Shown: positions 12,662-42,603 of the stretch, piece by piece
How the letters are laid out: each line of letters begins with the position of its first letter
Numbering within the stretch: the first letter of the stretch is position 1
Assembly (NCBI GenBank): GCA_051955775.1
Contig: JBQCGJ010000111.1
Location: forward strand, 1 to 49,657
DNA: 49,657 nt
Origin: Gaiellales bacterium
GTDB lineage: Bacteria > Actinomycetota > Thermoleophilia > Gaiellales > JAICJC01
Reading direction: 5' to 3'
Notes under the pieces: model-generated
Told to the model about the DNA's origin: nothing
Database searches by the model: none
What the model saw: the letters and a program-made list of their open reading frames with translations, nothing else
Position numbers and translations under genes: made by a program

Positions 12662-13327
12662 CTAGATCAGCCCCTCCCGCACCGCCTGCGCGACCGCCTG
12701 CGAGCGGGTGCGGGCGTCCATCTTGGTGACCACGTCGTGCAGCACGTTCTTGATCGTGCGCTCGCTGTAGGACAGCTGCACCGCCACCTCGCGGGTCGGA
12801 TGCCCGGCGGCCACAAGGCGCAGCACCTCCTGCTCGCGCTCGCTCAGGCGCGACAACGAGAGGCCGCGCGGCTCGAGCACATCCGAGGACAGTCGCGACA
12901 GGTTGCGCAGCAGCGCGCCCAGCAGATCCGGCGCCATCACGCCGGCGCCGTCGGCCGTCGCGCGCACGCAGCTGGCGAGCGCTTCGGAGGTCAGCGTGTC
13001 CTTGCGGAGGTAGCCGACCGCACCCGCCTGCACCGCGGCGATCACCTCGTGCTCCTCGGCCGAGGACGAGCACACAACCACCCTGGGCCGGCCGATCAAC
13101 GCCAGGCGCCGGATGAACTCCAGCGCGCCCGGCACTCGATCGTCCACGAGCAGCACGTCCGCCTGCGCCAGCTCGGGGTCGCGCTCGCCTGCCGCGACGT
13201 CGCCTGCATCGGACACGAGGTCCACGTCCTCGAGGCCGCTCAGGCACGCAACCAGCCCGCGACGATAGATCGAATGACCGTCGATGACGAAGAGCTTCAC
13301 TGAACCCGCCCGTCCAACCTCGCTCAA
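12662..13327 (-). CDS. NarL/LuxR-family response regulator (REC + LuxR HTH)
   Basis: REC domain (KLFVIDGHSIYR...ADVLLVDDRVPG...VVVCSSS...GAVGYLRKD) and a LuxR-type HTH (LSEREQEVLRLVAAGHPTREVAVQLSYSERTIKNVLHDVVTKM). TTG start at 13325-13327, with the GTG at 13298-13300 as an alternative. No histidine kinase gene is adjacent. Confidence 0.85.
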   Translation of the reverse strand: MSEVGRAGSVKLFVIDGHSIYRRGLVACLSGLEDVDLVSDAGDVAAGERDPELAQADVLLVDDRVPGALEFIRRLALIGRPRVVVCSSSAEEHEVIAAVQAGAVGYLRKDTLTSEALASCVRATADGAGVMAPDLLGALLRNLSRLSSDVLEPRGLSLSRLSEREQEVLRLVAAGHPTREVAVQLSYSERTIKNVLHDVVTKMDARTRSQAVAQAVREGLI

Positions 13328-13378: not shown

Positions 13379-13717
13379 ATGCCTGTAATCATCACCACCA
13401 ATGCCACGATCATGTGCAGCCACGGCGGCCGGGTCGTGCTGACACCGCACCAGATGCAGGTCACCGCGCAGGGCGGGAACATCCTGTGTGATCCCGACCT
13501 CGTTGGCGCGACGATCTCCGGATGCGCGCAGCCCTCGACGACCAGCAGCAAGCCGTGCATGACCGTCGTCTCGGTGCTCCCCGGCTCGACGTCGCTCAAG
13601 GTCACGGTCGGCGGCAAGCCCGCCTACACCTCGGCGCTGACCGGGATGACCGACGGCGTTCCGCCCGGCACGATCAGCGTGATCGATGCCGGCCAGACGG
13701 TCGCGACCGCCAGCTGA
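13379..13717 (+). CDS. DUF4280-like (PAAR-like) spike-tip protein
   Basis: 112 aa. ATIMCSHGGRVVL...GNILCDPD...ISGCAQP...KPCMTVVSV...VTVGGKPA matches the Cys-spaced beta-rich pattern of DUF4280 proteins found beside VgrG / phage-tail loci. It is convergent with the last CIS operon gene (3' ends 13 nt apart). Confidence 0.7.
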   Translation: MPVIITTNATIMCSHGGRVVLTPHQMQVTAQGGNILCDPDLVGATISGCAQPSTTSSKPCMTVVSVLPGSTSLKVTVGGKPAYTSALTGMTDGVPPGTISVIDAGQTVATAS

Positions 13718-13730
13718 GAGGCGGCAGACG

Positions 13731-15533
13731 TCAGGCCAGGAGCTGCCTGGCGGCTCCGAGCTGGAGCGCGTAGCGGCCGCGGTACATCGCCGCCGGTCGC
13801 TCGATGTCGGCCACCCATTCACCCCATGACGAGGGGTCGCGCCCGAATTCCGCGTCGCCGGCGGCGATGCGCTGCTGGCGCACCGCGACCGCCTGGTCGA
13901 TGAACCATCGCAACTGGAGATCCGGCCGGTGCGCGAAACCGGGGTACTGGGCACCCCATACCGACGCCCGCATCTGGAAGTACCCGAGCGAGTCGGCGTC
14001 GCCGTACTGGTCGTTGTGCAGCCCGGACTCGACCAGGGCGGCCATCACGGGCAGCTCGGGCGGCAGCCCGTGGCGACGCGCCGCCTGGGCCATCCACTCT
14101 GCGATCTGGTGCTTGGAGGCGCCGTCGCCCGGGTAGGCCATGTGCCCCATGGCCGAGACCTGATCCACGAACTGGCCGCCGCCGACGGAGGGCACCGGCT
14201 GGGTCATGGCGCCACCCGCGGGCGGGGCCGCCTGCACCGCCTGCACGGCTGGGGTTCCCGACAGCGTCTGCGGCCCCCCGGCTGCCGCCGGCATGCCGGG
14301 CGAGGCGGGCGTGGCCGGCGCGGAACCCTGCTCGAGCGGAACGACCCGCCGGGCGGCCACGAAGTGGCCCTTGAACACGTCCACGTCGGTGATGTGCACC
14401 GAGGCGCCGGTGTGCGGCGCCTCGATCACCTTGCCGTGGCCGATGTACATCACCACGTGCTCGGCGCTGGTGCCTCCGACCCAGTTCGAGAAGATCAGAT
14501 CGCCGGGCTGGAAGTGGCCCCACTGCACCGGGGTGCCCTCCGTGACCTGGTCGTACGTCACCCGTCCCAGGTGAACCCCGGCCTGTCCATAGGCCCACTC
14601 GACCAGCCCCGAGCAGTCGAACCCCTGCGCCGGCGTATCACCGCCCCACACGTACTCGGTGCCGAGCATCCGCTTGGCAGCCGCGATCGCGGCCAGCGCT
14701 TTGGGGTTGGCCATGGCGCCGCCCGTGGTGGAGTCCACGAACGCCGGGTCGACCGTGATCCGGTGCCGATGCGCGGCCTCCGACATGAACCCGGGCGATC
14801 CGATGTGCCACGGCGTGCCGACCGCGATCGGCCGCTGGCCCGGGGGCAGCTCTGACAGCGTCTGCACCAGGTCGCGGGCAGCGATGTTGTCCGGCCCCAC
14901 CGGCCTGCCGTCCACCTGTGTGATCTCGATCCCGGTCGGGTCGACCCGCCCGATGGTGACGCGGTGGCCACCCACGTGCGTCAGCAGAGCGGCCACCCGG
15001 TCGCCCATCCCGGGGTCGGCGAGGCCGGCACGAGCGTCGGGGGAGAAGCTGAACCGGGGGTCGTCGAGGGCTGACAGCGAGGCCGCGGCGTGTGCGGGAT
15101 CGGCTGTGCTTCCCATGGTCGCGGGAACGCCGGCGAGGGCCTGCGCAGGCTGGGCGGGCGGCTCGACGACCGGCGCGGCTGCCGGGTGCGGCGCGGGCAC
15201 CGCGGGCATGCCGAGGTGGGTGTGGGCGAGATGAACGGCCTGTGCGGCCTCGCCGTGCCAGCGGGCCAGCTCGTGCTCGAAGAAGTGGGCCACCCCGATG
15301 CCCTCCGCGGCCGCCGCCAGCACGACGCCGGCCAGGCTCGACCTCGACTCGCGCACCTCCTGGGTGTACATCGCCCGCTCGGGCGCGACCTCGAACTCGC
15401 GGGCCAGCGAGTCCAGGCCGAGCGTGCGGCAGGTACCCGCCTTGTCGCGGCGAAAGGCCTCGCGCAGCCCGGGGTCGACCAGCAGCCGCTCGATCAGCTC
15501 GGCGGCCCCGGTGGTCTCGTCAGGCGCCGACAC
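13731..15533 (-). CDS. Bifunctional peptidoglycan hydrolase: NlpC/P60 endopeptidase + SLT-like lytic transglycosylase domain, no signal peptide
   Basis: NlpC/P60 core (YVWGGDTPAQGFDCSGLVEWAY...HVVMYIGHGKVIEAPHTG). The C-terminal region has a transglycosylase-like ES...GYFQM pattern (MAALVESGLHND...DSLGYFQMRASVW). The N-terminus (MSAPDETTGAAELIERLLVDPGLREAF) is not a signal peptide. The GTG start at 15531-15533 overlaps the upstream gene by 14 nt. Confidence 0.8.
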   Translation of the reverse strand: MSAPDETTGAAELIERLLVDPGLREAFRRDKAGTCRTLGLDSLAREFEVAPERAMYTQEVRESRSSLAGVVLAAAAEGIGVAHFFEHELARWHGEAAQAVHLAHTHLGMPAVPAPHPAAAPVVEPPAQPAQALAGVPATMGSTADPAHAAASLSALDDPRFSFSPDARAGLADPGMGDRVAALLTHVGGHRVTIGRVDPTGIEITQVDGRPVGPDNIAARDLVQTLSELPPGQRPIAVGTPWHIGSPGFMSEAAHRHRITVDPAFVDSTTGGAMANPKALAAIAAAKRMLGTEYVWGGDTPAQGFDCSGLVEWAYGQAGVHLGRVTYDQVTEGTPVQWGHFQPGDLIFSNWVGGTSAEHVVMYIGHGKVIEAPHTGASVHITDVDVFKGHFVAARRVVPLEQGSAPATPASPGMPAAAGGPQTLSGTPAVQAVQAAPPAGGAMTQPVPSVGGGQFVDQVSAMGHMAYPGDGASKHQIAEWMAQAARRHGLPPELPVMAALVESGLHNDQYGDADSLGYFQMRASVWGAQYPGFAHRPDLQLRWFIDQAVAVRQQRIAAGDAEFGRDPSSWGEWVADIERPAAMYRGRYALQLGAARQLLA

Positions 15534-17181
15534 GGTCCACCTCCCTGCGCGGGCGGGCCCGGCGGATCAGGGGGGCGCCCAGCACGAACATCACGGGCAC
15601 CAGGACGAGCACATCGAATGTCGCCAGCACCGCCCACGCTAGCCGTGTGGAGTGTGTTGCGGACACCAGCAGGTCGTAGTACCGGCTGGACAGGAGCATG
15701 GCCAGGCCGGCGGCGACGATCAACCAGGCGATCCCGGCCACGGCGTACACCTCGAGCACCCGTGAGTCGGACGCCTCCACCGGCTGCCCGGCCAGCCGCC
15801 GGGCCAGCCTCTCCCGGGAGCGCTTGCGCAGCCCGGGCTGGCCGAGCGTGTCGACCAGGATGTGGTAGCCATCGCGGTCCAGGAACGGGTTGAGGTTGAA
15901 CAGGCCGCCCAGGTACGCGCCCAGCGCGAGCTGGAACGCCACCTCGGCGGTGACGCCGCTGGCGAACGCCGCGACCAGGGCGAATGCGCCGCCCACGGCC
16001 GCGTCCGACACCGGGCCGGCGGCGCCGATGGCGATGCGATGCCGGCGCGGTTCGAACCAGCCCTCCGAGGTGTCCACGAAGGCGTACGGGAACACCAGCA
16101 CGACCTTGAGGCCGGCACGGGGAACTCGCCGCCCGTACGAGGCCACGGTCAGCGCGTGCGCCAGCTCGTGCACCGCCACGATCAGAAACCGTCCCAGCAC
16201 AAACACCACCGAGCCGAGCCCCAGGCTTCCGGCGACCACCAGCGGCGTGACCGACCCATCGGCGATGGCCACCACGAATCCCAGGAAGCCGACAGCCGCC
16301 AGCCCGGTCACACCGGCCCGGCCGGCGCGCGTGAACAGCAGGAATCCGCCGTGCACGTAGAGCCACTCGACCCAGTTCCCGATCCCCGGCACGACCAGGT
16401 CGCGCGGCGTGAACATCCGAGCCAGCCGGCCGCGCGGCCCTGCGGCACGGCCGCCCTCGATTCCGGCCAGCATGCCGCGGTCGCCCAGCTCGGCCAGCAG
16501 CGTGGCCAGCCGGGCCGGCCCGTCGGCTCCCAGCCGTCGCTCGGCCTCCGCCACCAGCTCGGGCAGGGCCGTCGTCCCGTCCAGCATCAGGAGCAGCTCG
16601 GCCTCCTCCTCGCCCATCCGCATGAAGTCGTTGCCCTCGAGGTCGCGAACCACGTATCGCTGCGCGCCCTCCAGCTCGTCCAGCCGTTTCAGCGCCCAGC
16701 CGGAGCGCAGGCGCGGCCGCGGGCCAAGCTCGGCCGCGGGCCCGGCCAGCGTGAGCTGGGGCCGCACGAGGGTGCTTCCGGCGCGGACGAGGATGGTCTC
16801 TCCGGCCTCCCACTGCTCCCGGTGGCGGTCGACGCGAAGCTCCGTGTCGCCGATGCGGACGGTGGTTCCGGGCCGCAGCGGCCGCTCGCCCTGGATCTGG
16901 TTGCCGTCGAGGAAGGTGCCATAGCTCGACCCGGAGTCGCTGATGCTGGCGCGTCCGTCGTGCACGACGATCCGGGCGTGCCGGCGGGAGACGCTGCGAT
17001 CGTCGAGGCTGAGGTCGTTGTCCTCGGCGCGGCCGATGGTGAGCGAATCCTCCAGGGGGATCCGCCGGCCGTCGCCCAGCACCAGCTCCAGCTGCGGCGC
17101 CTCGCCCCACCTGGGGGCGCCGCAGGTCGGGCAGAACGGGTCGTCCCGCGAAACCTGGCGGTGGCAGGTGCGGCAGATCAC
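15520..17181 (-). CDS. Zinc-ribbon / FHA-domain / M50 (site-2-protease-like) polytopic membrane metalloprotease
   Basis: - N-terminal CxxC...CxxC zinc ribbon (VICRTCHRQVSRDDPFCPTCG).
- Canonical FHA domain (LTIGRAEDNDLSLDDRSVSRRHARIV...SSYGTFLDGNQI...RIGDTEL).
- Multi-TM region with HExxH (VAVHELAHAL) and the second M50 motif (FNLNPFLDRDGYH).
- I trimmed the track ORF (to 17940) to the GTG at 17179-17181, which overlaps the upstream TGA (GTGA). Confidence 0.8.
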   Translation of the reverse strand: MICRTCHRQVSRDDPFCPTCGAPRWGEAPQLELVLGDGRRIPLEDSLTIGRAEDNDLSLDDRSVSRRHARIVVHDGRASISDSGSSYGTFLDGNQIQGERPLRPGTTVRIGDTELRVDRHREQWEAGETILVRAGSTLVRPQLTLAGPAAELGPRPRLRSGWALKRLDELEGAQRYVVRDLEGNDFMRMGEEEAELLLMLDGTTALPELVAEAERRLGADGPARLATLLAELGDRGMLAGIEGGRAAGPRGRLARMFTPRDLVVPGIGNWVEWLYVHGGFLLFTRAGRAGVTGLAAVGFLGFVVAIADGSVTPLVVAGSLGLGSVVFVLGRFLIVAVHELAHALTVASYGRRVPRAGLKVVLVFPYAFVDTSEGWFEPRRHRIAIGAAGPVSDAAVGGAFALVAAFASGVTAEVAFQLALGAYLGGLFNLNPFLDRDGYHILVDTLGQPGLRKRSRERLARRLAGQPVEASDSRVLEVYAVAGIAWLIVAAGLAMLLSSRYYDLLVSATHSTRLAWAVLATFDVLVLVPVMFVLGAPLIRRARPRREVDRVGA

Positions 17182-19622
17182 GGCGTCGAGAAGAGCGTCG
17201 GCTGGGATGCAGGGTTGGAGGCGCCGTTGGCGGTGGTCGTCAGGGTCTGCACCGCCGGCGGTGAGACCGACGGTTCGACCAGCTCGAACCCGCCGGGACT
17301 GGTTGTACACGCCGAGCTGGGCGTGACGCCCGTCGGCACCAGACTGACGACCAGTTGACCGTCCGATCGCCAGGCGACGGTGCACGCCGGAGTGCTGGTC
17401 GGGAGCGAAACCGGGCTCCAGCTCGTGATCACGTCGCCGCTCGTCTTGCCCAGGTAGACCGCGCCGCCGACGACCGCCGCCGGCCCGAGCGGGCCCCACG
17501 CGACCGACCATACCGCGTTGCCCGCCTGAGGCTGCTGGACACCCGCCGTGACCGGGTGCCAGCTGGCCTGGTTGCCTGACGACGGGATGGTGCTCGTGTA
17601 CTCGACGAGCGTCCCACCGGAGATCGCGAGGATGGCCATCCCGTCCGGCGCCCAGGCAGGCCGGTCGATCATCCATGACGACATGAACACGCAGGACGGC
17701 GAACTGCTCGCTGTGGTCAGGGAGACATCGACGAAGCACAGCTCGCCGGTGGAGCCGGTGGCGTAGGACGCGTAGGCGATGACGGAGCTCTTCGGATCGG
17801 GAGCGAAGGCCGGGCGGTGCACCTGACTGGCGCCGGCGATCTGCGTCGGCGAATTGCGGGAGGACAGGCCGACCCAGTAGAGGTTGGTGTCCGGACTGGG
17901 CCCCGCGATGAAGGCGACCTTCCGCCCGTCCCCGCTCCATGCAGGCTCAGTCGCCTGGGCGACCCCTGGCGCAAGAGGCTTCGGCGTGCCGCCGAGCGCA
18001 GGCTGCGTGGAAAGCACACCGCCGGAGTCGTACGCCAGCAGCGGATTCCCGGCAGAGACCTGAAGCTCGACGACCTGGCCCTTGGGAACCGTGCCGGACG
18101 GCTGGATCTTGATGACCGTGTTCGGTTTCTTGTGGCTGAGAACAAGCGTTTCGTGGTACGGGATGCCCGCACTCGTCAGCGCGGCGATCGCCGCCGCGGC
18201 CGACGCCCCCGCTGCCGCCGCCGCCGGCACCTTCGCGCTTCCGCCGCTCCCGCCGCCGCCGCTGACCGTGGTCTTTCCAGCCAGGAAGGCGACGATGGTC
18301 GTGCCCTTCGGAACCTGCGTCCCGGGCGCCTGCTGCTGGCACTTGGTTGCACGGATCTTGTCCGTCGTGCTCGTTGCGGGCGGGTTGGTGGACAGCGTCA
18401 GCGTCGTGGGCAGCGCCTTGTTCGCCGCTGCGATGGTGTCGTTGCAGAGACTCGGGACGGCCACGGTGTTCGGGCTCGTGCGCACGTACAGCGTGACCTG
18501 GCTGCCGCTCTTGACCGAGGCGTTTCCCGCGGGATCGGTGCGGCGCACAGTGCCCGGCTGGCCGTGGCGAGACGGCTTGAGGTTGACGAGCGCGACCTTG
18601 AACCCCTTCTGCTGGAGCTGAGCCTGGGCGAGCTTCGCCTGCTCCCCGGCAACCGGCGGCACCGTCACGTAGCGCGGCCACAGCTTGTACCCGACGATGC
18701 CGAGCGCGATGGCGATCACGGCTGCCGCCGGCACCCAGGTCGGGATCCGCGGCCGCTGCCGGAAGGTGCCCTCCACCACCACCTCGCCGGTATCCGATCC
18801 GACGGGGGTGCCCACCAGCTCGAACCGGTGGTCGACAGGCTTGCCGAACCACGGCCGCTTGACGGCCCGCACGCGCACCACCGTCGTCGACTCCCGGCCC
18901 GGGCGGACGCCGGTGCGCTGCCGCTCGAACTTGAACCGGCACTGCTGGTTCTCGTCAGAGCCCTCCCATTCCACCTCCACGGGGGCGTTCCCGGTGTTCG
19001 TGGCGGCCGCGGCGAAGCGCGCGGAGCGCCGCCCCGAGGCCGTCTTCGGCCGCAGCTCGCCGGTCAGCTCGGAATACGGCGGCACGGTCAGCGTCAGCCG
19101 GGCGGAGGCGATGTCCTGCCCGCTGCTCTGGGAGCGGGCGACCACCGTCACCTCCCAGCTGCGCGACTCGCGTCCGTCCCGAGTGGGGTGGAACCGCACC
19201 TGCACGTCCTTCTCCCACCCCCCGACCGGAGCGCCGAACTGGAGCAGGTCGATCGCCTCCGGCGCCACCGTCGCCCAGCCCTCGGGCAGGCCCTGGACGC
19301 GCAGGTCATACCGGTCGACCTTGCCGCTCTGGTTGCGGATCGAGCAGATCAGCATGGCTTCGCCGCCCGGCTCGACCGTCACCTCCGGGTCGCCGGCGCC
19401 GACCTCCTCGTCATCCGGCTCGCGCAGCGTCATCAGCACCGGATCCGGCCGCCGCGTGGGCGGGGCGGGCATGACCCTCGTTCGCGTGCTTTCGTCCGCC
19501 GCCTGGCCCCGGCGAACGGCAGGCACTTCCCGTGTCGGATCCCACCGCAGGTACTCGTGGCAGTTCTCGCACGAGTCCCGGTCCTCCGGGTTCTGGTGCC
19601 CGCAGAACGGGCAGATCTTCAT
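17178..19622 (-). CDS. Zinc-ribbon / cytoplasmic Ig-like region / single TM / 3x PASTA / PD40 (TolB-like) beta-propeller membrane protein
   Basis: - Zinc ribbon: MKICPFCGHQNPEDRDSCENCHEYL.
- About 300 aa of cytoplasmic beta-rich region.
- TM helix: IPTWVPAAAVIAIALGIVGYKLW.
- Three PASTA-like units: VTVPPVAGEQAKLAQAQLQQKGFKV...VTLYV; VAVPSLCNDTIAAANKAL...; AAIAALTSAGIPYHETLV...VELQVS.
- WSPDG-type PD40 repeats: EPAWSGDGRKVAF, RPAWAPDGMAILAI, TVAWRSDGQLVV.
- The ATG overlaps the gpI-like stop (ATGA at 19619-19622). Confidence 0.8.
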   Translation of the reverse strand: MKICPFCGHQNPEDRDSCENCHEYLRWDPTREVPAVRRGQAADESTRTRVMPAPPTRRPDPVLMTLREPDDEEVGAGDPEVTVEPGGEAMLICSIRNQSGKVDRYDLRVQGLPEGWATVAPEAIDLLQFGAPVGGWEKDVQVRFHPTRDGRESRSWEVTVVARSQSSGQDIASARLTLTVPPYSELTGELRPKTASGRRSARFAAAATNTGNAPVEVEWEGSDENQQCRFKFERQRTGVRPGRESTTVVRVRAVKRPWFGKPVDHRFELVGTPVGSDTGEVVVEGTFRQRPRIPTWVPAAAVIAIALGIVGYKLWPRYVTVPPVAGEQAKLAQAQLQQKGFKVALVNLKPSRHGQPGTVRRTDPAGNASVKSGSQVTLYVRTSPNTVAVPSLCNDTIAAANKALPTTLTLSTNPPATSTTDKIRATKCQQQAPGTQVPKGTTIVAFLAGKTTVSGGGGSGGSAKVPAAAAAGASAAAAIAALTSAGIPYHETLVLSHKKPNTVIKIQPSGTVPKGQVVELQVSAGNPLLAYDSGGVLSTQPALGGTPKPLAPGVAQATEPAWSGDGRKVAFIAGPSPDTNLYWVGLSSRNSPTQIAGASQVHRPAFAPDPKSSVIAYASYATGSTGELCFVDVSLTTASSSPSCVFMSSWMIDRPAWAPDGMAILAISGGTLVEYTSTIPSSGNQASWHPVTAGVQQPQAGNAVWSVAWGPLGPAAVVGGAVYLGKTSGDVITSWSPVSLPTSTPACTVAWRSDGQLVVSLVPTGVTPSSACTTSPGGFELVEPSVSPPAVQTLTTTANGASNPASQPTLFSTP

Positions 19623-20287
19623 GTCGGGTCCTCGGCGGGCGCCGGCGGCTGCTTCACGCGCAGCTTGTAGGGCACACCCACCGGCTTCAGGCGATCGATG
19701 GTGTGCGCGACCTTCGCCTGTTCGGCCGTCGGCAGCGGGGCATCGCAGTAGACGATGAACTCACGCTTTGCCTTGCCGCGGCCCGCCGGGTCGCCGGCCC
19801 ACACCACGGCGCCGTTGTCGACCACACGCAGCGGCAGCTCGGGGTAAATCAACCGCAGCGCCAGCTCCATCCCCGCCCGCGTGCCCCGCCTGCGTGCCAG
19901 CTCCGGCGCGTTCCTGACCAGCTGCCGGCGGCGTTCGACCGGCCACGACTCGTCGACCTCCAGGCCGAGCCAGCGGGCTATCAGGCCCACCATTGCTGAC
20001 GGCGCCATCTCCGGCACGAGATGTGACGGCAGGCAGTCGAGCACCGCGACGACGGGGTCGAGCACCTCCTCCAGTCCACCCACCAGGGCCAGCCCGAACG
20101 CCGGGCCGCGTCCGCGCGCCGGCTGCACCCGGTCGGGGTCGGTGTACATCGAGGGCAGCCCTGCCCGCAGGTACCCGCGCGCGCTGGCGGTGGGCGGGCT
20201 CCAGCGCAGCTCGGGCTCGGGCGGCGCCTCCGGCGCGGCAGCCGCGATGGCCGCCACGGTCAGCACGGACGTCTGCGGCTCGTCCAC
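19619..20287 (-). CDS. Phage tail protein I-like baseplate wedge protein (Afp12 / gpI equivalent)
   Basis: LPSMYTDPD...LVGGLEEVLDPVVAVLDCLPSHLVPEMAPSAMVGLIARWLGLEVDESWPVERRRQLVRNAPELARRRGTRAGMELALRLIY matches the P2 gpI-family pattern. It sits directly after the gpJ-like gene. Confidence 0.8.
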   Translation of the reverse strand: MDEPQTSVLTVAAIAAAAPEAPPEPELRWSPPTASARGYLRAGLPSMYTDPDRVQPARGRGPAFGLALVGGLEEVLDPVVAVLDCLPSHLVPEMAPSAMVGLIARWLGLEVDESWPVERRRQLVRNAPELARRRGTRAGMELALRLIYPELPLRVVDNGAVVWAGDPAGRGKAKREFIVYCDAPLPTAEQAKVAHTIDRLKPVGVPYKLRVKQPPAPAEDPT

Positions 20288-20290
20288 AGC

Positions 20291-22288
20291 TCACTCGCCC
20301 CGCGACTCGACCCGCACGCGGTGCCTGCCGGACACGATCACCTCGTCGGGCGCCAGCTCCAGCAGCGCCTCGCGGGAGATCGGCTTCGGCTGCTCCAGCC
20401 CGGTCTCGAAGTCGGTCTCGTAGACGCGCAGGATGGTCACGAACTCCACTCCGGCGACCGCCCGCACGACGCCGTACAACTCGCCCTGATTGAGCGCGCG
20501 GCCGAACTCCCAGCCGCTGCCCCGGCCCGTCGGAGAGCCCCCGACCAGCGGGTTGAGGAAGCGATACAGGGCGGCTTCCACACGCTCGCTGAGACGCGCC
20601 GCGTCGGTGTCCGGGAGGGACTGCAGCGCCACCACCACGGTCACTGCCCGCAGGCCGACCGAGCCCAGCTCGACGGTGGTGCCGATCATCCGGCGCTCGT
20701 CGAGATACGTTTGCACATGCTGGCGGACATCGAGCGGAAGCCGCAGCTCGTGCGGTTCGATGTAGCGGTCTGCGTTCTCGATCTTGGGCAGCAGGCGGAC
20801 CGGGATGACCCCGTCCGCCGCGGGCTCCAGACACGCCGCGCGGGCGACCTTCTGCGACGCCTGGGTGCACAGGAACTCGTAGTCGGCGGCCGTCACCGCC
20901 CGGTGGCGGGTGCGCAGGTCGAACCCTGCCCGCTCGCGCGCGCTGTCCAGCGACTCGGGGTCGACGCCGCCCACCGCCGCCTCGGGATTGGTCACCGCCT
21001 CGATGCCGGGGATCGCGGACTTGAGTGTGCGCAGGGTGTCGGCGGCCACGTTGCCGCCCCGGCCACCGCCGTGCCGGTAGCGAGTGAAGCGCAGCGCCGC
21101 GCCGGGGCCCGGGACCGCCCCGAACTCACGCCAGTTCCCGTCCGGAAGCCGGATCGCGGGCCCGAACGAGATCTCGCCGGCCACTGCGTCCAGCCTGTAG
21201 TGGCGATCGTCAGGGGCGGACTCGACAAAGGACGGGCAGGGTGTCCAGTCGACCCATTCCGCCGCCTCGCGCTCGAGCACCTGCAGCCGCTCGCCGGGCT
21301 CCGGCGCCACCACCGGCGATCGCCGCAGACGGAACGTCTGCCCGCGCGATCCGTCGCTCTCGCCCAGCACCTCGGCGGTGACCAGCTCGGCGTTCATCGC
21401 AGGCAGCCGGGCGCCCACCGCGGCCACCTCGATGCCGTCGATCTCGGGTGGCTGCGAGTACGAGCCCTCGGCGCCCGACCGGGTGTGGGAGTCGAGCCGG
21501 CAGCGCAGCCAGTGCATTCGCGTTCCGCCCACCGACCCGGCGGCCGCGTTCGGCGGCAGCTCCAGCTCGATGGTGCCGGTGCCGTAGTTGAACCCGCCCG
21601 TGCGGTCGGCCAGCACGCTGACCTCCGCCCACTCGTCGTTCGTGGCCGACACCTCCCAGCGCAGCGGCGGGTCCTCCGGATCGACCCCGGCGCCGCGGGC
21701 CCGCGACCCCTCCACATACACCCGCACCAGCAGGCTGGCCAGTGGATCGTCGAACCCCAGGTACAGCGCGTCGCCCGCGGCCGGCGGCGAGCCGAAGGCC
21801 AGCCGGTCCTGGCCGACGGGGCGGGCCTGCCCGGCGGCCGCTCCGATGTCCTTCAGCTTCCCGGCGCGCTGCAGCTGGTAGCTGGCGAGGCGCAGCGCCG
21901 GGATGGTGAAGTCCGCCTGGGTCGAGAACACGATCGATTCCTCGCTGGGAGTCCGCCGTGTGCCCGCCTGCGCCTCGTGGGCGGGGATGCGGATCGGCTG
22001 GGCGGCGGGCGCGCCGAGCCGGAACCGCAGGTCGGTGGTGGCCGCGGTGGGCGGTCCCAGCTCGATCCCCAGCAGCTCCAGCAGCGCCACGTGGACCTTG
22101 TCGGGCACCCGGTTCAGGCGGTAGATCAGCATGTCTGTCATCCACGCGAACGCCTCCACCAGGGTGATCCCCGGGTCGGACACGTTGTGCTCCGTCCACT
22201 CGGGGCAGCGGGCGCCGATGCGCAGCCGGGCCTCGCTCACCAACTGCTGGAAGTCGCGGTCGTCCAGCACGATCTGCGGCAGCGTCAC
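20291..22288 (-). CDS. Baseplate J-like protein (Afp11 / gpJ / gp6 equivalent)
   Basis: N-terminus MTLPQIVLDDRDFQQLVSEARLRIGARCPEWTEHNVSDPGITLVEAFAWMTDMLIYRLNRVPDK is the hallmark of eCIS 'putative baseplate assembly protein'. 665 aa. The GTG start overlaps the gp25 stop (GTGA at 22285-22288). Confidence 0.9.
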   Translation of the reverse strand: MTLPQIVLDDRDFQQLVSEARLRIGARCPEWTEHNVSDPGITLVEAFAWMTDMLIYRLNRVPDKVHVALLELLGIELGPPTAATTDLRFRLGAPAAQPIRIPAHEAQAGTRRTPSEESIVFSTQADFTIPALRLASYQLQRAGKLKDIGAAAGQARPVGQDRLAFGSPPAAGDALYLGFDDPLASLLVRVYVEGSRARGAGVDPEDPPLRWEVSATNDEWAEVSVLADRTGGFNYGTGTIELELPPNAAAGSVGGTRMHWLRCRLDSHTRSGAEGSYSQPPEIDGIEVAAVGARLPAMNAELVTAEVLGESDGSRGQTFRLRRSPVVAPEPGERLQVLEREAAEWVDWTPCPSFVESAPDDRHYRLDAVAGEISFGPAIRLPDGNWREFGAVPGPGAALRFTRYRHGGGRGGNVAADTLRTLKSAIPGIEAVTNPEAAVGGVDPESLDSARERAGFDLRTRHRAVTAADYEFLCTQASQKVARAACLEPAADGVIPVRLLPKIENADRYIEPHELRLPLDVRQHVQTYLDERRMIGTTVELGSVGLRAVTVVVALQSLPDTDAARLSERVEAALYRFLNPLVGGSPTGRGSGWEFGRALNQGELYGVVRAVAGVEFVTILRVYETDFETGLEQPKPISREALLELAPDEVIVSGRHRVRVESRGE

Positions 22289-25490: not shown

Positions 25491-27419
25491 TCACGGCAGG
25501 TCTCCCAGCAGGTCACCCATCCGCTCGCGCTCCGTCATCAGCTCACGGCGCAGGCGATCGACGACGCGCTCGTACAGCTCCTCGTCGTCGGCGGAGCCGC
25601 CGGCCGGAGCCGCCGCAGCCGGGGCCGGCGGAGCGGCAAGCTCGCGCTGGCCGGCCGGCGCCTGCCCGGCCGCCGGCGGCGTGTCCATCGCCGGGGCAGA
25701 CGCCGCCTCGGGCTGGCCGACCGCCCGGAAGAGCACCGTCGAGCGGCCGCCCTCGTGAATCGCCGTCGTGCCGGCGGCGTGCGCCAGCCCGGCACCGGTG
25801 GAACCCTGAAGCGCCGCCGGGCCGGGCTCGAACCATCCGGCATCGGCCGGCTGTGCGGCGGACGGCGCTGCGAACGACGACGCGGTCTCCGGGCCGGGCG
25901 CGTCCGGTCGCGTGACGGCGCGCGGACGCCGGGCGGTCTGCAGCATGACCGGCGGGCGTGCGGGCAGAACGGCGCGCGGCGCGCTCCCGGGCCGCGGCAT
26001 GCGGGAGCGGGCGGCCGCGGCTGGTGCCGTGGTGACGGCGGCCGGTGCCGTGGCGACGGCGGCAGGTGCCGTGGCGACCGCGGCGCCATCGCCGGGGACC
26101 GCGAACTGCACATCCGCGGGCTCGACGGCCGGGTGGCCGGGCACCGCCGGGTGACGCTGCAGCGCGACGTTGCCGGCCGGCAGATGCGGGGAGTCCGCGT
26201 CCGCCCCGGACGGCCGCAACACCGGAGCCAGCGCGGCCGGTGGGCCCGCATCACCTGGCCCGGCCGGCGGCGCTGCAGGCCCGCGCTCGGCCGCCGGCAC
26301 GGATCCGGCGGGCTCCGGCGACGGCGGCGGCGGCTGATCACGCCGCCCAGGCCGGGAGAGCACGCGGGAGAGCTGTCGTCCCAGCCCCCGCGACGGCCGG
26401 GGCTCCGCCTCGGCCGGGGCTTCGACAGGCGGCTCCCCGGGGAGCCGCGGCGACGAGAGGGGGGCGGCCGCAGGCGGCTCCTCGGTGGCACGGCGCACCG
26501 TCCGGGCGAGGGGCTGCGCATGCTCCCTGCGTCGATCCGCGGCCCTGCTCGAGCGTGTCAGGCGCAGGGGCGCGGGCCGTCCGGGGGCGCCGGGCGCGGC
26601 AGCATCCGGCGCCCCGGCCTCGGCGCCGGCGCGAGGCGAGGGGATGTCGGCCGGCTGCTCGGGCTCGGGAATGCCGGCGGCCTCGTCCGGCGGAGTGGCG
26701 GGCGGTGGCTCGACCGTTGGCTCAGCGGGCGACGATTCTGCCCGGCCCTCGTCCGCAGCGGGCGGGACGCTGACGGGCTCAGACGACGGCTCGGTCGCGA
26801 ACACGGGCGCCGGCCGCGCGTCCTCGTCGCCTGCATCGGGCGGCCCTGCCGGCGGCGCGGGCTCCCGGTCGGGCGCCGCAGCCGCAGGCACGCTGACGGA
26901 CTGCGCAGGCTCCGCCGGCGACGGCGTCTCGGCCGCCGAGCGGGCGACCCGCGCCGGCGCAGGCGGCGATCCCGGACGCCTGGCCGACAGCCGGTAGCGG
27001 CCGATCTCCTCGATCGGAGGCCGCGGCCCGGCCGTCCGCTCTGTGCGCTCCGGCGCCGGGGGCGGCGTCTCGGGCGGTGGTGGAGACAGAAACGACGGGC
27101 GCGACCGCTCGCCGCCCGTTTCGGCGTGCATCGCGGCGGCGGCGAACGGCAGCCCCTCGACCGGTCCATCGCCGAAGATCCAGCGCGCGGCGAAGTCGCT
27201 CATCCCCGGAGGCGCAGGCAGCTCCGGCGCCGCCGGGACGGCTTCCCGGCGCAGCGGCGCCAGCCGCACGGACCCCGCCAGCAGCTTCGGCCGCCGCCGC
27301 TCATGGATCGCGCCGGCCAGTCTGGCCACGCCGAGCCTCCCCGGGCGGGTGCGGCGGTCGATCAACCGCACCCCCAACGGGATCCGTGATGCAGAGGCTG
27401 GGTGGTCGTGCTCGGTCAT
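25491..27419 (-). CDS. Pro/Ala-rich tape-measure-position protein (tail length determinator candidate)
   Basis: 642-aa ORF in the slot between the chaperone-like genes and the tube initiator. It has structured N- and C-termini (C-terminus DDEELYERVVDRLRRELMTERERMGDLLGDLP) around a long low-complexity P/A/E/R core. The ATG overlaps the upstream stop (ATGA at 27416-27419). Confidence 0.6.
   Translation of the reverse strand: MTEHDHPASASRIPLGVRLIDRRTRPGRLGVARLAGAIHERRRPKLLAGSVRLAPLRREAVPAAPELPAPPGMSDFAARWIFGDGPVEGLPFAAAAMHAETGGERSRPSFLSPPPPETPPPAPERTERTAGPRPPIEEIGRYRLSARRPGSPPAPARVARSAAETPSPAEPAQSVSVPAAAAPDREPAPPAGPPDAGDEDARPAPVFATEPSSEPVSVPPAADEGRAESSPAEPTVEPPPATPPDEAAGIPEPEQPADIPSPRAGAEAGAPDAAAPGAPGRPAPLRLTRSSRAADRRREHAQPLARTVRRATEEPPAAAPLSSPRLPGEPPVEAPAEAEPRPSRGLGRQLSRVLSRPGRRDQPPPPSPEPAGSVPAAERGPAAPPAGPGDAGPPAALAPVLRPSGADADSPHLPAGNVALQRHPAVPGHPAVEPADVQFAVPGDGAAVATAPAAVATAPAAVTTAPAAAARSRMPRPGSAPRAVLPARPPVMLQTARRPRAVTRPDAPGPETASSFAAPSAAQPADAGWFEPGPAALQGSTGAGLAHAAGTTAIHEGGRSTVLFRAVGQPEAASAPAMDTPPAAGQAPAGQRELAAPPAPAAAAPAGGSADDEELYERVVDRLRRELMTERERMGDLLGDLP
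26023..26085. repeat. 3 x 21-bp in-frame tandem repeat inside the tape-measure-position gene
   Basis: GGTGCCGTGGTGACGGCGGCC / GGTGCCGTGGCGACGGCGGCA / GGTGCCGTGGCGACCGCGGCG. On the minus strand these encode AAVATAP-AAVATAP-AAVTTAP. Confidence 0.7.
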
Positions 27420-27577
27420 TCCGTGGGCGCCCGAAGGGCGGACAGGTTGGTGGTGTGCGCCAGAAACCGGCGCCGGTCAGCGTGCTGGAGGTCGAGGATC
27501 GATTCCAGCGGCCAGTGCAGGTGATACGCCAGGACGGCCGTCTCCTCGAACAGCTCATCGAGGGACGGCCGCGTCAT
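27416..27577 (-). CDS. Small conserved CIS-associated protein (about 53 aa; DUF6760-like)
   Basis: MTRPSLDELFEETAVLAYHLHWPLESILDLQHADRRRFLAHTTNLSALRAPTE. The ATG at 27575-27577 overlaps the upstream TGA (ATGA). The family name is from memory of small proteins in actinobacterial tail-like clusters and is tentative. Confidence 0.5.
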   Translation of the reverse strand: MTRPSLDELFEETAVLAYHLHWPLESILDLQHADRRRFLAHTTNLSALRAPTE

Positions 27578-27963
27578 TCCCCCAGGCCACCGTCCTCGAT
27601 CTCGGCCAGGTCGACCTCGAAGTGGTGGCCGCAGGACGGGCAACTGACCGCCCCGACCGTATCCGTGTCGGCGTTCAGCCGCTCGTACATGCGCTGAAGG
27701 TGATCGAAGTCGGCGGCGTACATGTCCTCCACGACCCGGGGCGTGATGTCGGTCAGCGTGCCCAGCCGAGTGAGGACGCGGGACAGCAGCAGCACCGTCA
27801 GATATGCCTCGTTCTGGCGCACCGCCGGATCGCGCATGGGCTCGATTTCGTCGCGGGCCGTGGCCAGCCTCATCGTGCCCTCCCGGTGCAGCTCGCCGCG
27901 GGCGTCCACATAGCCGTGGGGCAGGGTGAACGCATACTCGGTGCGGATCGTCGCGGTCGTCAT
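27574..27963 (-). CDS. Tail-assembly-chaperone-position protein with C-terminal CxxC...zinc-ribbon-like motif
   Basis: 129 aa, located between tube and tape measure, which is the gpG/gpE position in phage tails. EYAFTLPHGYVDARGELHREGTMRLATARDEIEP...VSCPSCGHHFEVDL. No named family asserted. Confidence 0.6.
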   Translation of the reverse strand: MTTATIRTEYAFTLPHGYVDARGELHREGTMRLATARDEIEPMRDPAVRQNEAYLTVLLLSRVLTRLGTLTDITPRVVEDMYAADFDHLQRMYERLNADTDTVGAVSCPSCGHHFEVDLAEIEDGGLGE

Positions 27964-36268: not shown

Positions 36269-36285
36269 TCGGCACAGGGGGCGTC

Positions 36286-38544: not shown

Positions 38545-38625
38545 GTGCCAACTGGCACAAGGTGCGGAAGATCCGGGCCTCCCGAATCGTCGTTGGGTCA
38601 GGGCAACGGGCGAAAGGACCGGGTC

Positions 38626-41172: not shown

Positions 41173-42048
41173 CTACGCGTTGTCCAGAACCACGAGCTCG
41201 AGACCCGACAGCACGTCCGGGTCGGCAATCAGGTCGACGGCGGTGATGCGGTCGCCGCTCGTGCTGAACCGGTAGACGACGCGCAACTGGCCGTCCTGCA
41301 CCCACACGGCTGCGGCCGCCCCGGCCAGCAGGGCGGGTTTCGCTCCGCGGGCATACCGCAGGAATCCACCCACAGCCTCCGCCCCCCGGGTCTCGACGGC
41401 CGCCCCCAGCTCCACGGCCCGCCGGTCGGCCCGCAGCACCACATCGGGATCGAGCAGCGCGAGCAGCGCCTCGAAGTCGCCGTTGCGAGCAGCCACCAGG
41501 AAGGCGTCGACCAGCTCGGCCTGACGCACCCGGTCGGGCTCACCGGCGGCGTCGTGGTGCTGCACGCGCGCACGTGCGCGGCTCGCCAGCTGCCGGGTCG
41601 CCGGCGTGCTGCGATCGACGATCGGGGCGATCTCGTCGAACGGCACCGCGAACACGTCGTGCAGCACGAACGCGACCCGCTCGGCGGGGGTCAGGCTGTC
41701 CAGCACGACCATCAGCGCCAGGCCGACCGAATCGGCCAGCACCGCCTGGTACTGGGGATCGGCGTCGGCCTCCTCCGCCGCCTGCTCGGGTGCGGGCTCG
41801 CCGACCGTCTGCGGCCGTGACCGGCGGGCCTGCAGCATGTTCAGGCACACGCGCGAGACGACCGTGGTCAGCCATCCGGCAAGGTTGTCCACATCGCTGG
41901 TGTCCGCACGGCTGAAGCGAAGCCAGGCGTCCTGCACCGCATCCTCCGCCTCGCCGGGCGAGCCGAGAATCCGAGCCGCGATCGCCGTCAGACGCTGCCG
42001 GTGTTCCTCGAACCGCTCGGCCGGCCAGCTGGAATCGTTCGTGGCCAC
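41173..42048 (-). CDS. ECF sigma factor, SigJ/ECF41-like (sigma-70 r2 + r4 + C-terminal SnoaL-like extension)
   Basis: Region 2 (GEAEDAVQDAWLRF), region 4 (LTPAERVAFVLHDVFAVPFDEIAPIVDRSTPATRQLASRAR) and a C-terminal NTF2/SnoaL-like part (FLVAARNGDFEALLALLDPDVVL). No adjacent anti-sigma gene. Confidence 0.85.
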   Translation of the reverse strand: MATNDSSWPAERFEEHRQRLTAIAARILGSPGEAEDAVQDAWLRFSRADTSDVDNLAGWLTTVVSRVCLNMLQARRSRPQTVGEPAPEQAAEEADADPQYQAVLADSVGLALMVVLDSLTPAERVAFVLHDVFAVPFDEIAPIVDRSTPATRQLASRARARVQHHDAAGEPDRVRQAELVDAFLVAARNGDFEALLALLDPDVVLRADRRAVELGAAVETRGAEAVGGFLRYARGAKPALLAGAAAAVWVQDGQLRVVYRFSTSGDRITAVDLIADPDVLSGLELVVLDNA

Positions 42049-42195: not shown

Positions 42196-42603
42196 TCAGG
42201 CGGCGGACAGCAGGTTGAGCTGCCAGGACACTCCGAAGCGATCGTTCAGCCACGCGAACCGCGGGCTGAAGTCGTACTCCTGAAGCGGCATCAGGATCGC
42301 CCCGCCGTCGGCCAGCAGCGCGAAGGCCCGGTCGAGCTCGCCGGCGTCGTCGAAGTCGACGGTCAGCGAGATCGCCGGGGTGAACGTGAAGCGGTGGTCC
42401 GCCGCGCTGTCCATGGCCACCAGGTCGCGGCCGGCCACGGTGAACCACGCCCGCCTGACGCCGCGCTCCTGGGCGTCCGGCGCGAACCGCTCGATCTCCA
42501 CGATGCGGGCGTCGTCGAACGCCGACACGTACAGCTCCATCGCCTCCTCGGCCCTCCCGCACTGGTCGCCCACGAACATCAGACAGGTGGCGATGCGCTG
42601 CAC
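42196..42603 (-). CDS. VOC-superfamily protein (PhnB / 3-demethylubiquinone-9 3-methyltransferase-domain-like)
   Basis: MQRIATCLMFVGDQCGRAEEAMELYVSAF...DRFGVSWQLNL is typical of this small family. Confidence 0.8.
   Translation of the reverse strand: MQRIATCLMFVGDQCGRAEEAMELYVSAFDDARIVEIERFAPDAQERGVRRAWFTVAGRDLVAMDSAADHRFTFTPAISLTVDFDDAGELDRAFALLADGGAILMPLQEYDFSPRFAWLNDRFGVSWQLNLLSAA

Follow-up and report, generated by a model that had tools for sequence, protein, structure and literature searches.

The contractile injection operon and its terminal cassette

The stretch analyzed here, referred to as the window, is a complete 49,657-bp contig from the metagenome-assembled genome (MAG) of a Gaiellales bacterium (Thermoleophilia, Actinomycetota) and encodes a full contractile injection system (CIS). 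Pfam and PHROG searches place the CIS genes in a minus-strand operon that runs from ~33.9 kb down to 13.7 kb. A first set comprises eCIS_core/DUF4157, an AAA ATPase and Pvc16_N, a middle set comprises the sheath, two gp19-type tube proteins and a tail-assembly-chaperone-like protein, and a last set comprises CIS_tube, VgrG, gp25, Baseplate_J and Tail_P2_I, followed by genes for an 814-aa and a 553-aa protein. The end of this operon is a cassette in the order gpI, 814-aa membrane protein (P814), intramembrane protease and peptidoglycan hydrolase, which, with PknB-like kinases encoded in the same locus, appears to be a conserved CIS accessory of the Thermoleophilia.

The gpJ-like (Baseplate_J, 57.3 bits in Pfam; 20291–22288, minus strand) and gpI-like (Tail_P2_I, 40 bits; 19619–20287, minus strand) baseplate wedge genes lead into three further genes on the same strand. 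The gene for P814, a bitopic CIS-associated membrane protein (17178–19622), shares an ATGA overlap with gpI, and the gene for the 553-aa protease (15520–17181), which has a zinc ribbon, an FHA domain, a recognition element and an M50 core, shares a GTGA overlap with P814; both were identified from their open reading frames (ORFs), these overlaps and Pfam/NCBIfam matches. The third gene (13731–15533) overlaps the protease gene by 14 nt and encodes a 600-aa NlpC/P60 peptidoglycan hydrolase (78.4 bits) with an NHLP-type leader-like N-terminus, which we propose as the substrate of the protease. An earlier reading of this DNA, made from the sequence only, had reported the first two genes and their coupling after the gpI-like gene, and we confirm both on the minus strand; the third coupled gene was missing from that reading. 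The GC content is 68–76% across the window and 71% for the contig, and third-position GC reaches 0.90–0.92 in the P814 and protease genes, which argues that both ORFs are real genes. The P814 start in the NCBI annotation lies 50 codons downstream (764 aa), which cuts off the ATGA overlap with gpI as well as the conserved ribbon (19473–19622, minus strand).

P814 is a predicted bitopic membrane protein

Several lines of evidence support an N-in/C-out bitopic architecture for P814, in the order zinc ribbon, linker, tandem Ig module, transmembrane (TM) helix, PASTA units and PD40 propeller. The architecture is common to 20 relatives, and the word-indexed database holds ~20 that are full-length, with 26–55% identity. 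The N-terminal zinc ribbon (CPFC...CENC, then YLRWDPT; 19545–19613, minus strand) scores 18.7 bits against DZR, below the Pfam cut-off, but C4, C7, C18 and C21 and the YLRWDPT motif that follows are nearly invariant in the 20 relatives. An AlphaFold2 model of residues 1–320 (mean predicted local distance difference test, pLDDT, 84.9) has a disordered linker, two beta-sandwich domains at residues 62–289 and a TM helix at residues 296–314. The two sandwiches form a cytoplasmic tandem Ig-like (PapD/ASH-like) module (18756–19439, minus strand; pLDDT >90) that carries an invariant RNQSG-VD-Y...G-P-W motif and for which Foldseek returned only generic tandem Ig/ASH/PapD-like and intimin-like folds. 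The single TM helix (residues 293–314; 18681–18746, minus strand; Kyte-Doolittle 1.99) contains Pro and Gly, and a conserved W-x-P-x-W motif lies at its cytoplasmic edge. The bitopic layout and the cytoplasmic beta-rich region that the sequence-only reading had described are thus both upheld, by hydropathy and AlphaFold2 for the former and by the two modeled sandwiches for the latter.

The ectodomain (~495 aa) consists of three PASTA-like units (18045–18668, minus strand) and a propeller. With a cut-off of 23.2 bits for PASTA (PF03793), unit 1 (residues 319–380), directly after the TM helix, scores 60.8 bits, whereas unit 2 (residues 381–456; 12.7 bits, E 0.13) and unit 3 (residues 457–526; 21.4 bits, E 2.5e-4) fall below it in the window copy. 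The NCBIfam model PknB_PASTA_kin aligns to residues 300–523 as a single array (E 2.3e-20), and relatives carry 2–3 significant units. The PD40/TolB-like beta-propeller region (17181–18044, minus strand; TolB propeller E 7e-6) is marginal for PD40 (PF07676) in the window, with 22.3 bits against a cut-off of 20.9; relatives score 38–59 bits (up to 58.8) and match both PD40 and Tricorn_N strongly. Of the extracellular domains claimed earlier, the first PASTA unit therefore stands in the window copy itself, the other two are supported by the array model and the relatives, and the propeller, just above its cut-off here, is clear in the relatives.

The protease combines FHA, RRE and M50 domains

The protease begins with a zinc ribbon (17113–17175, minus strand; Zn_Ribbon_1 20.5 bits) that, like the one on P814, lies below its Pfam cut-off but has Cys residues that are nearly invariant in relatives, so that both ribbons proposed in the earlier reading are sub-threshold matches backed by conservation. 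The FHA domain (residues 48–111; 16849–17040, minus strand) matches PF00498 with 65.9 bits and is canonical, as had been claimed: PDB profile matches include Rv1747, GarA and EmbR (~1e-11 to 1e-10), and G50, R51, S65, R66 and H68 are invariant in relatives, with the Asn of the 'NG' turn being His or Tyr here.

Between FHA and M50 lies a domain that the earlier reading had lacked, a small winged helix of beta-beta-beta-alpha-alpha fold (residues ~159–235; 16477–16707, minus strand; AlphaFold2 pLDDT 87). Its closest structures in Foldseek are the lasso-peptide recognition elements TbiB1 (5v1v) and 6jx3 (probability ~1; target-normalised TM-score 0.72–0.74, root-mean-square deviation 2.5–2.7 Å), which marks it as a predicted PqqD-like recognition element (RRE) of the kind that binds leaders of RiPPs (peptides made by the ribosome and modified after translation).

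The polytopic M50/site-2 protease (S2P) core (15547–16329, minus strand) contains HELAH (residues 338–342; 16156–16170) and NLNPFLDRDG (residues 429–438; 15868–15897), and no variation was seen at H338, E339, H342, N429, P432, D437 or G438 among two sets of relatives, of 11 and 47 proteins. In an AlphaFold2 model of residues 120–553 (pLDDT 87.2, predicted template modeling score 0.83) the core has the fold of MjS2P and SpoIVFB (Foldseek 3b4r, E 2.5e-3, probability 1.0; 8vjl, probability 1.0); a PDB profile search gave E 0.012 and 0.096. The M50 assignment of the earlier reading thus holds for motifs and fold, while the Peptidase_M50 (PF02163) score of the window copy, 22.8 bits, is under the gathering cut-off of 27.2; most relatives have a precomputed PF02163 match, and one from a locus without CIS genes (L060) scores 30.5 bits.

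The best NCBIfam match of the protease is daptide_HExxH (NF041824; residues 173–506, E 3.6e-36), and the YydH/LiaK epipeptide protease model also matches (E 2.9e-8). Because the daptide_HExxH score, 125.1 bits, lies below the equivalog cut-off of 300, and because Pfam searches of the window found none of the daptide tailoring genes (aminotransferase, alcohol dehydrogenase, DUF-RRE) in the CIS island, we regard the protease as a relative of the daptide proteases and not as a member of that pathway. The only methyltransferase-type matches in the window lie outside the island (FtsJ-like, 1511–2236; 3-dmu-9_3-mt, 42196–42603). Judged by its profile matches and models, the protease is an RRE-fused S2P of the RiPP leader-peptidase type (daptide MpaP-like) with an FHA domain and a zinc ribbon, and with putative proteolytic activity.

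On plasmids, FHA-M50 relatives were matched through the M50 core alone, to M50-HlyD fusion genes, and a tblastn search of plasmids found the cassette absent from Streptomyces CIS plasmids. On E. coli and Citrobacter plasmids, genes that bear the label 'HlyD-family adaptor subunit' contain a part with 38% identity to M50 core residues 337–450, which suggests that these are M50-HlyD fusions of a peptide-export type.

The hydrolase carries a leader-like domain

The hydrolase starts with a leader-like domain of the NHLP clan (residues 10–45; 15399–15506, minus strand), recognized by NCBIfam and Pfam models. Among 41 orthologues, matches at E ≤ 0.01 were obtained in 41 with NF038399 and in 40 with TIGR04509, and the Pfam model Frankia_peptide matched 37; the best E values are 1.5e-11 for NF038399 and 1.8e-11 for TIGR04509 and range to 2.9e-8 over the three models. 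After the leader comes a junction block of 22 residues (15300–15365, minus strand), almost all of them invariant in column counts over the 41 orthologues (T-L-[DE]-[ILVM]-R-E-S-[KR]-S-S-L-A-G-x-x-M-A-A-A-x-E-G), which we consider a candidate phospho-site and cleavage helix. Many FHA domains prefer pT-x-x-I/L/V, and the invariant T57 in this block would fit that preference because an aliphatic residue occupies its +3 position in 37 of the 41 orthologues. The second half of the block is an Ala/Gly-rich, weakly hydrophobic helix (Kyte-Doolittle ~1.4–1.9).

The catalytic domain (residues 291–395; 14349–14663, minus strand) matches NlpC/P60 in Pfam with the 78.4 bits given above, as well as RipC- and RipA-type NCBIfam models, and among PHROGs is most similar to phage tail lysins. 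Hydrolase length ranges from 490 to 1,990 aa across loci with the first ~100 residues conserved, and in most loci, including those that have no CIS genes, the gene starts within 30 nt of the end of the protease gene. The C-terminal region gave no match in Pfam (E ≤ 10) or in a PDB sequence search, and among databases just one phage tape-measure PHROG matched it, over a short stretch. An SLT-like domain there (~residues 470–600; 13734–14126, minus strand), seen by eye from an ES...GYFQM pattern that recalls lytic transglycosylases, is left as a hint.

Since the protease has a predicted RRE and the next gene has an NHLP-type leader-like domain in 41 of 41 orthologues, the hydrolase is likely a better candidate substrate than P814. 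An RRE near a leader, combined with a membrane active site near a hydrophobic stretch, would follow the logic of RiPP leader peptidases, and this analogy also points to the hydrolase.

Kinases are encoded in the same locus

Just beyond the head of the CIS operon, and divergent from it, lie two genes for PknB-like bitopic Ser/Thr kinases and a third for an 806-aa protein. Kinase 1 (727 aa; 34085–36268, plus strand) scores 158 bits against Pkinase and has a TM helix at residues 397–415; kinase 2 (752 aa; 36286–38544, plus strand) scores 151.5 bits, with a TM helix at residues 328–346. At least 50 of 57 related loci encode, no more than 10 kb downstream of the protease gene, a kinase domain that is 60–87% identical to that of kinase 1. 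Going by their domains and position, the locus kinases could be the source of phospho-Thr for the FHA domain. The 806-aa protein that follows the two kinases (34085–41124, plus strand, from the first kinase to its end) is bitopic, has 2–3 PASTA units and NHL repeats, and is the second PASTA-bearing membrane protein of the island.

The cassette is linked to CIS genes across Thermoleophilia

For synteny we limited the count to the 68 loci with at least 7 kb of upstream flank. The order VgrG-gp25-gpJ-gpI-P814-protease is kept in 60 of these 68 related Thermoleophilia loci, and the pairing of P814 and protease with CIS baseplate genes, which the sequence-only reading had seen in one contig, is therefore a true CIS association and not a chance neighbourhood. 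The P814 gene always follows gpI, with intergenic gaps near zero in CIS-linked loci; two distant relatives (L001, L002) likewise overlap the preceding gpI by 4 nt and are followed by an FHA-M50 gene. Relatives of the protease number 1454 at E ≤ 1e-5 and occur in 238 GTDB species (one genome per species). The best 80 are all from Thermoleophilia, including cultured Solirubrobacter, and a protein search found another in cultured Miltoncostaea oceani. The cassette is present in the cultured strains Solirubrobacter soli, S. pratensis, S. phytolaccae, S. deserti and M. oceani and is thus open to study.

The remaining 8 of the 68 loci have the protease without CIS genes upstream. Three of these eight, from Thermoleophilaceae and Solirubrobacteraceae MAGs (L051, L060, L080), were scanned for neighbours, and in them the protease, an NlpC/P60 gene and a kinase lie beside UPF0182, and no CIS gene is nearer than 10 kb. 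The leader block is found in the downstream gene of the non-CIS loci L051, L060 and L075, and also in L082, where the upstream flank is too short to judge. Because protease, hydrolase and kinase co-occur without CIS genes, the module is partly separable; the set looks like a self-standing module that has been built into the CIS operon in most Thermoleophilia. Of the 62 CIS-linked protease copies 60 have the zinc ribbon, as against 2 of the 8 unlinked ones (Fisher p 5.7e-6, uncorrected for phylogeny), and the ribbon common to the protease and P814 is a candidate CIS-docking element.

P814 belongs to a wider family of CIS-associated membrane proteins

With the tandem-Ig module of P814 as query, an exhaustive HMMER search recovered 5,500 cluster representatives at E ≤ 1e-3, of which 407 are at E ≤ 1e-30. 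Nearly all family members have a TM helix ~5–15 residues after the module; the other parts vary and include a zinc ribbon with a four-TM tail, three FHA domains with a beta-helix, and polytopic tails. In all five sets looked up, the genomic context of the module is a CIS locus. A word-indexed profile search listed the same family only, with many matches being frameshift fragments from nanopore MAGs.

A tblastn search against plasmids located the module on megaplasmids of Streptomyces, Streptantibioticus and Kitasatospora. On a plasmid of Streptomyces sp. NBC_01324 (L088) the match is a 452-aa 'hydrolytic protein' encoded beside a LuxR gene and a CIS cluster; it is 31% identical to the P814 module over 191 residues (BLASTP E 5e-19) and has the same order of module, TM helix and C-domain. 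In S. coelicolor, SCO4256 is likewise annotated 'hydrolytic protein' (PMC2000904), was recovered as a single-TM membrane glycoprotein (PMC6593405) and is present in purified particles (PMC10020575). Sco4256-4258 resemble each other at the N-terminus, and each has one TM helix and a sugar-binding C-domain that varies; for the N-domain, called PapD-like, homologues are described from Actinobacteria, Cyanobacteria and Chloroflexi, again in CIS loci (PMC10066040; PMC10020575). The family has been termed putative effectors or cargo, and deletion of sco4256-4258 leaves the tube lumen empty and phenocopies loss of the CIS (PMC10066040). From the common annotation and architecture we infer that the 452-aa plasmid protein is in the Sco4256 family. 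Since the P814 N-module is homologous to this Streptomyces CIS-cluster protein, P814 would be a variant of a known CIS membrane-protein family, that is, a new architectural variant of the Sco4256 type placed in the gene slot of the Streptomyces adaptor CisA.

In a Chloroflexota CIS locus (Herpetosiphonaceae MAG GCA_026003835.1; L086, 6920–13004), gpI (Tail_P2_I) is fused to an FHA domain, and the product of the gene after this fusion has three FHA domains ahead of the tandem-Ig module, then a TM helix and a beta-helix. Going by these domains, phospho-Thr reading appears to be built into the baseplate itself in this locus.

Proposed mechanism and alternatives

From the domains, homologies and synteny described above we infer a chain of events, with its contacts, substrate, phospho-site, cleavage, hydrolase topology and outcome. 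P814 would link the machine and the envelope: inside the cell its zinc ribbon and Ig module presumably contact the CIS, and outside its PASTA units and propeller presumably bind peptidoglycan or its precursors. On an envelope signal, a locus kinase would phosphorylate T57 of the hydrolase, upstream of RES-K-SSLAG, or its own juxtamembrane region. The FHA domain of the protease would dock on this phospho-Thr and the RRE would bind the NHLP-like leader of the hydrolase, allowing the M50 core to cut in or next to the Ala/Gly-rich helix. The cut would release or activate the NlpC/P60 hydrolase, so that the wall is opened for CIS firing or the cell is lysed. We put the probability of the whole chain, from P814 coupling to the opening of the wall or lysis, at roughly one half.

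Several observations weigh against this chain. The leader of the window hydrolase is weak (18–21 bits versus a cut-off of 40), and the hydrophobic segment is also weak (Kyte-Doolittle 1.4–1.9) and contains Glu, which makes its insertion into the membrane uncertain. The hydrolase is without a signal peptide, and the chain thus does not account for its export. Both profile scores of the protease noted above, for Peptidase_M50 and for daptide_HExxH, are under their cut-offs. Pfam searches of the window found no PP2C phosphatase, and a circuit of the threonine-phosphorylation pathway (TPP) type completed by such an enzyme was accordingly ruled out for the window. The association of the protease zinc ribbon with CIS linkage carries no correction for phylogeny, and the Streptomyces relatives of the P814 module have been read as cargo and not as anchors (PMC10066040). 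Finally, eight loci have the protease without CIS genes upstream, and since the three of them scanned for neighbours keep protease, hydrolase and kinase together, the cassette may serve general wall remodelling.

The cargo interpretation leads to the alternative that competes best with the P814 part of the chain and is compatible with its protease-hydrolase part. P814 would then be a CIS cargo or effector of the Sco4256-4258 kind, loaded through its N-module and delivered into the membrane, where PASTA units and propeller target the wall. We consider this unlikely, though a serious contender. The homology and common module-TM-C-domain order with the Streptomyces CIS-cluster protein, the 'hydrolytic protein' annotation that the latter shares with SCO4256 (PMC2000904), the empty lumen and loss phenotype of the sco4256-4258 deletion (PMC10066040) and the presence of Sco4256 in purified particles (PMC10020575) all speak for it. 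However, a protein of 814 aa with Ig domains and a propeller is a poor fit to the tube lumen, and P814 occupies the post-gpI slot, translationally coupled to gpI, as fibres and CisA do. SCO4256 as a membrane glycoprotein (PMC6593405) suits a resident membrane protein, and the membership of the plasmid protein in the Sco4256 family is itself drawn from annotation and architecture.

A second alternative takes its cue from the non-CIS loci: protease, hydrolase and kinase could form a general Thermoleophilia module for wall remodelling or division that sits beside the CIS and has no CIS role. The sets beside UPF0182 (L051, L060, L080) and the eight unlinked loci out of 68 speak for it, and PknB/FHA/NlpC-P60 circuits control wall growth in other actinobacteria (e.g. 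RipA, CwlM, FhaA). Against it, 60 of the 68 loci place the protease directly after gpI-P814 with near-zero gaps, the zinc ribbon separates linked from unlinked copies (60/62 versus 2/8), the hydrolase domain is most like phage tail lysins, and an FHA domain is fused to gpI in a Chloroflexota CIS; with these in hand we find the alternative quite improbable.

The sequence-only reading had proposed that P814 tethers the baseplate to the membrane and that the FHA-M50 protein, recruited by phospho-Thr, could cut P814 in its TM helix, or another bitopic protein, to license or trigger firing. P814 is indeed bitopic with type-II (N-in) orientation, its gene comes immediately ahead of the protease gene and shares a GTGA overlap with it, its TM helix has Pro and Gly with W-x-P-x-W at the cytoplasmic edge, and the two proteins carry similar N-terminal zinc ribbons, of which that of the protease tracks CIS linkage. 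Classical S2P substrates with a large folded ectodomain need a prior site-1 cut. Tether cutting is nonetheless very unlikely: P814 has no leader-like element for the RRE and no conserved Thr in its cytoplasmic part (invariant positions over 20 relatives), its ectodomain would need a site-1 cut for which the locus holds no candidate protease, the protease is kept with hydrolase and kinase in loci without P814 and CIS genes, and the leader/RRE match of a leader-peptidase-type S2P points to the hydrolase as the better substrate candidate.

Extended beyond the single locus, the proposed chain from P814 coupling to hydrolase activation would describe a membrane-docked CIS with a phospho-Thr firing checkpoint, in which a wall-sensing kinase acts through an FHA-RRE-S2P to remove the leader of a large peptidoglycan hydrolase, so that the wall is opened at the very place where a PASTA-anchored adaptor keeps the baseplate, in Thermoleophilia and, in another form, in Chloroflexota. 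We offer this extension tentatively and hold it to be well short of even odds.

Other features of the island

The tail-assembly-chaperone-like protein (27574–27963, minus strand; PHROG 508) has a C-terminal CxxC zinc-ribbon-like motif with weak DUF7575 matches. A weak DUF7575-type match is also found at the N-terminus of the P814 relative P0003, and a Streptomyces plasmid CIS has a 'zinc-ribbon domain-containing protein' at the position of the chaperone-like protein. The tape-measure slot (25491–27419, minus strand) is filled by a 642-aa Pro/Ala-rich ORF that had no family match in Pfam, NCBIfam or PHROGs; related loci differ in their gene calls there.

A LuxR-type response regulator (12662–13327, minus strand) marks one end of the island and is kept in related loci; a LuxR gene also accompanies the Streptomyces plasmid CIS (L088), and the S. 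coelicolor CIS operon is controlled by the LuxR-family protein SCO4263 (PMC2000904). Between the LuxR gene and the hydrolase lies a 112-aa ORF (13379–13717, plus strand) found at 56–64% identity in many related loci, again beside a LuxR regulator. It may be a spike tip; a DUF4280/PAAR identity is not claimed for a match of 15.1 bits. At the island edge is an ECF-like (extracytoplasmic function) sigma factor with a SnoaL-like C-terminal extension (41173–41892, minus strand). An anti-sigma factor was considered as an M50 substrate and rejected, given this extension and that no partner anti-sigma gene was evident nearby.

Significance

How the cytoplasmic, extracellular-CIS-like machines of Gram-positives meet the membrane, breach a thick wall and time their firing is the question to which this locus speaks, and CisA is the sole adaptor with experimental support so far. 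The cassette offers a conserved and testable set of parts, namely a predicted wall-binding membrane protein, kinases, a putative FHA-gated protease and a phage-lysin-like hydrolase with a leader-like tag, and thereby suggests how such machines couple to the Gram-positive envelope. Bitopic CIS proteins in this slot (CisA), the Sco4256-type N-domain family, RRE-fused site-2 proteases, and kinase/FHA control with wall hydrolases in type VI secretion systems (T6SS) are already known. Three things appear undescribed in the literature on CIS: a CIS membrane protein whose ectodomain is of PASTA/PD40 type, the pairing of an FHA-RRE-S2P protease with a peptidoglycan hydrolase that bears a leader-like tag, and the class-wide conserved integration of this pair and kinases into the CIS operon. 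In the literature searched, which joined CIS with FHA, PASTA, site-2 proteases, Solirubrobacter, Thermoleophilia or Chloroflexi, no account of a kinase/FHA/RRE-S2P/leader-hydrolase cassette was found, in agreement with the sequence-only reading, which knew of no CIS locus described with such a combination. The locus may also be a case of RiPP-type leader/RRE recognition outside natural-product biosynthesis and, if the checkpoint reading is true, would be the first in which such recognition controls an enzyme rather than making a peptide natural product. In at least two phyla, CIS baseplates may be under direct FHA signalling.

Comparison with known systems

CisA (SCO4242) is a membrane adaptor needed for CIS firing in Streptomyces coelicolor (PMC12237407; PMC10020575). 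Like P814, it is encoded directly downstream of the baseplate wedge genes, is bitopic and N-in/C-out with a TM helix near residues 290–310, combines an extracytoplasmic sugar- or wall-related domain with a putative zinc-binding element on the cytoplasmic side, and has been proposed to act as envelope sensor and anchor. P814 is modeled with two Ig domains at high confidence where the N-terminal part of CisA is described as mostly lacking structure, and the C-terminal domain of CisA, of ~150 aa, is solute-binding/carbohydrate-like where P814 has three PASTA units and a propeller. No CisA-like protein was named among the P814-module matches of the word-indexed profile and exhaustive HMMER searches. 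The conceptual kinship with CisA noted in the sequence-only reading thus holds for gene slot and bitopy, and P814 is tied in addition, by its N-module homology, to the Streptomyces CIS-cluster protein (E 5e-19). With Sco4256-4258, a family confined to CIS loci of class IId type in Actinobacteria, Chloroflexi and Cyanobacteria (PMC10066040; PMC10020575), P814 shares a PapD/Ig-like N-domain, a TM helix and a C-domain that is variable and carbohydrate-binding in that family. Unlike them it has an added N-terminal zinc ribbon, a PASTA/PD40 ectodomain instead of a ricin domain or none, and a post-gpI slot with a coupled protease/hydrolase pair that is absent from Streptomyces plasmid loci.

For the protease, the HExxH and NxxPxxxxDG motifs in a polytopic core are common to RseP, SpoIVFB and Rip1, but FHA and RRE domains replace the PDZ or CBS domains of those enzymes and no anti-sigma substrate is evident. 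Closer parallels come from RiPP systems. Daptide clusters were found through an RRE fused N-terminally to a site-2 protease that removes the leader (10.1101/2023.03.08.531785), and EpeP/YydH, an M50 enzyme, probably cleaves its epipeptide and may also export it (PMC10885120). In daptide MpaP and YydH/EpeP, as in the window protease, the RRE lies N-terminal to the M50 core, and as with RiPP leader peptidases the product of the adjacent gene has a leader-like domain at its start and a hydrophobic stretch behind it. In contrast to those systems, the presumed substrate is a peptidoglycan hydrolase of 490–1990 aa and not a short peptide, the protease has FHA and zinc-ribbon domains, and the daptide combination of tailoring genes with short precursor genes ending in Thr is absent.

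The T6SS has a threonine-phosphorylation pathway (PpkA/TagE-Fha1/TagH) and the wall accessories TagL, TagX and MltE (PMC13584744). Here, as there, the genes of a contractile machine are accompanied by those for a Hanks-type kinase, an FHA protein, a peptidoglycan-binding membrane protein and a dedicated membrane-associated peptidoglycan hydrolase; in the window the wall binding and membrane association are predicted. The TagH FHA model matches the window protease weakly (41 bits). Homology does not extend beyond FHA and kinase folds, the window FHA is fused to a protease, and neither a PppA-type phosphatase nor a TssJLM complex accompanies it in this monoderm host, so that the resemblance to the T6SS pathway is an analogy only. 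Should the phospho-Thr checkpoint reading prove true, the cassette would be a Gram-positive counterpart of the T6SS membrane-complex, TPP and TagX logic.

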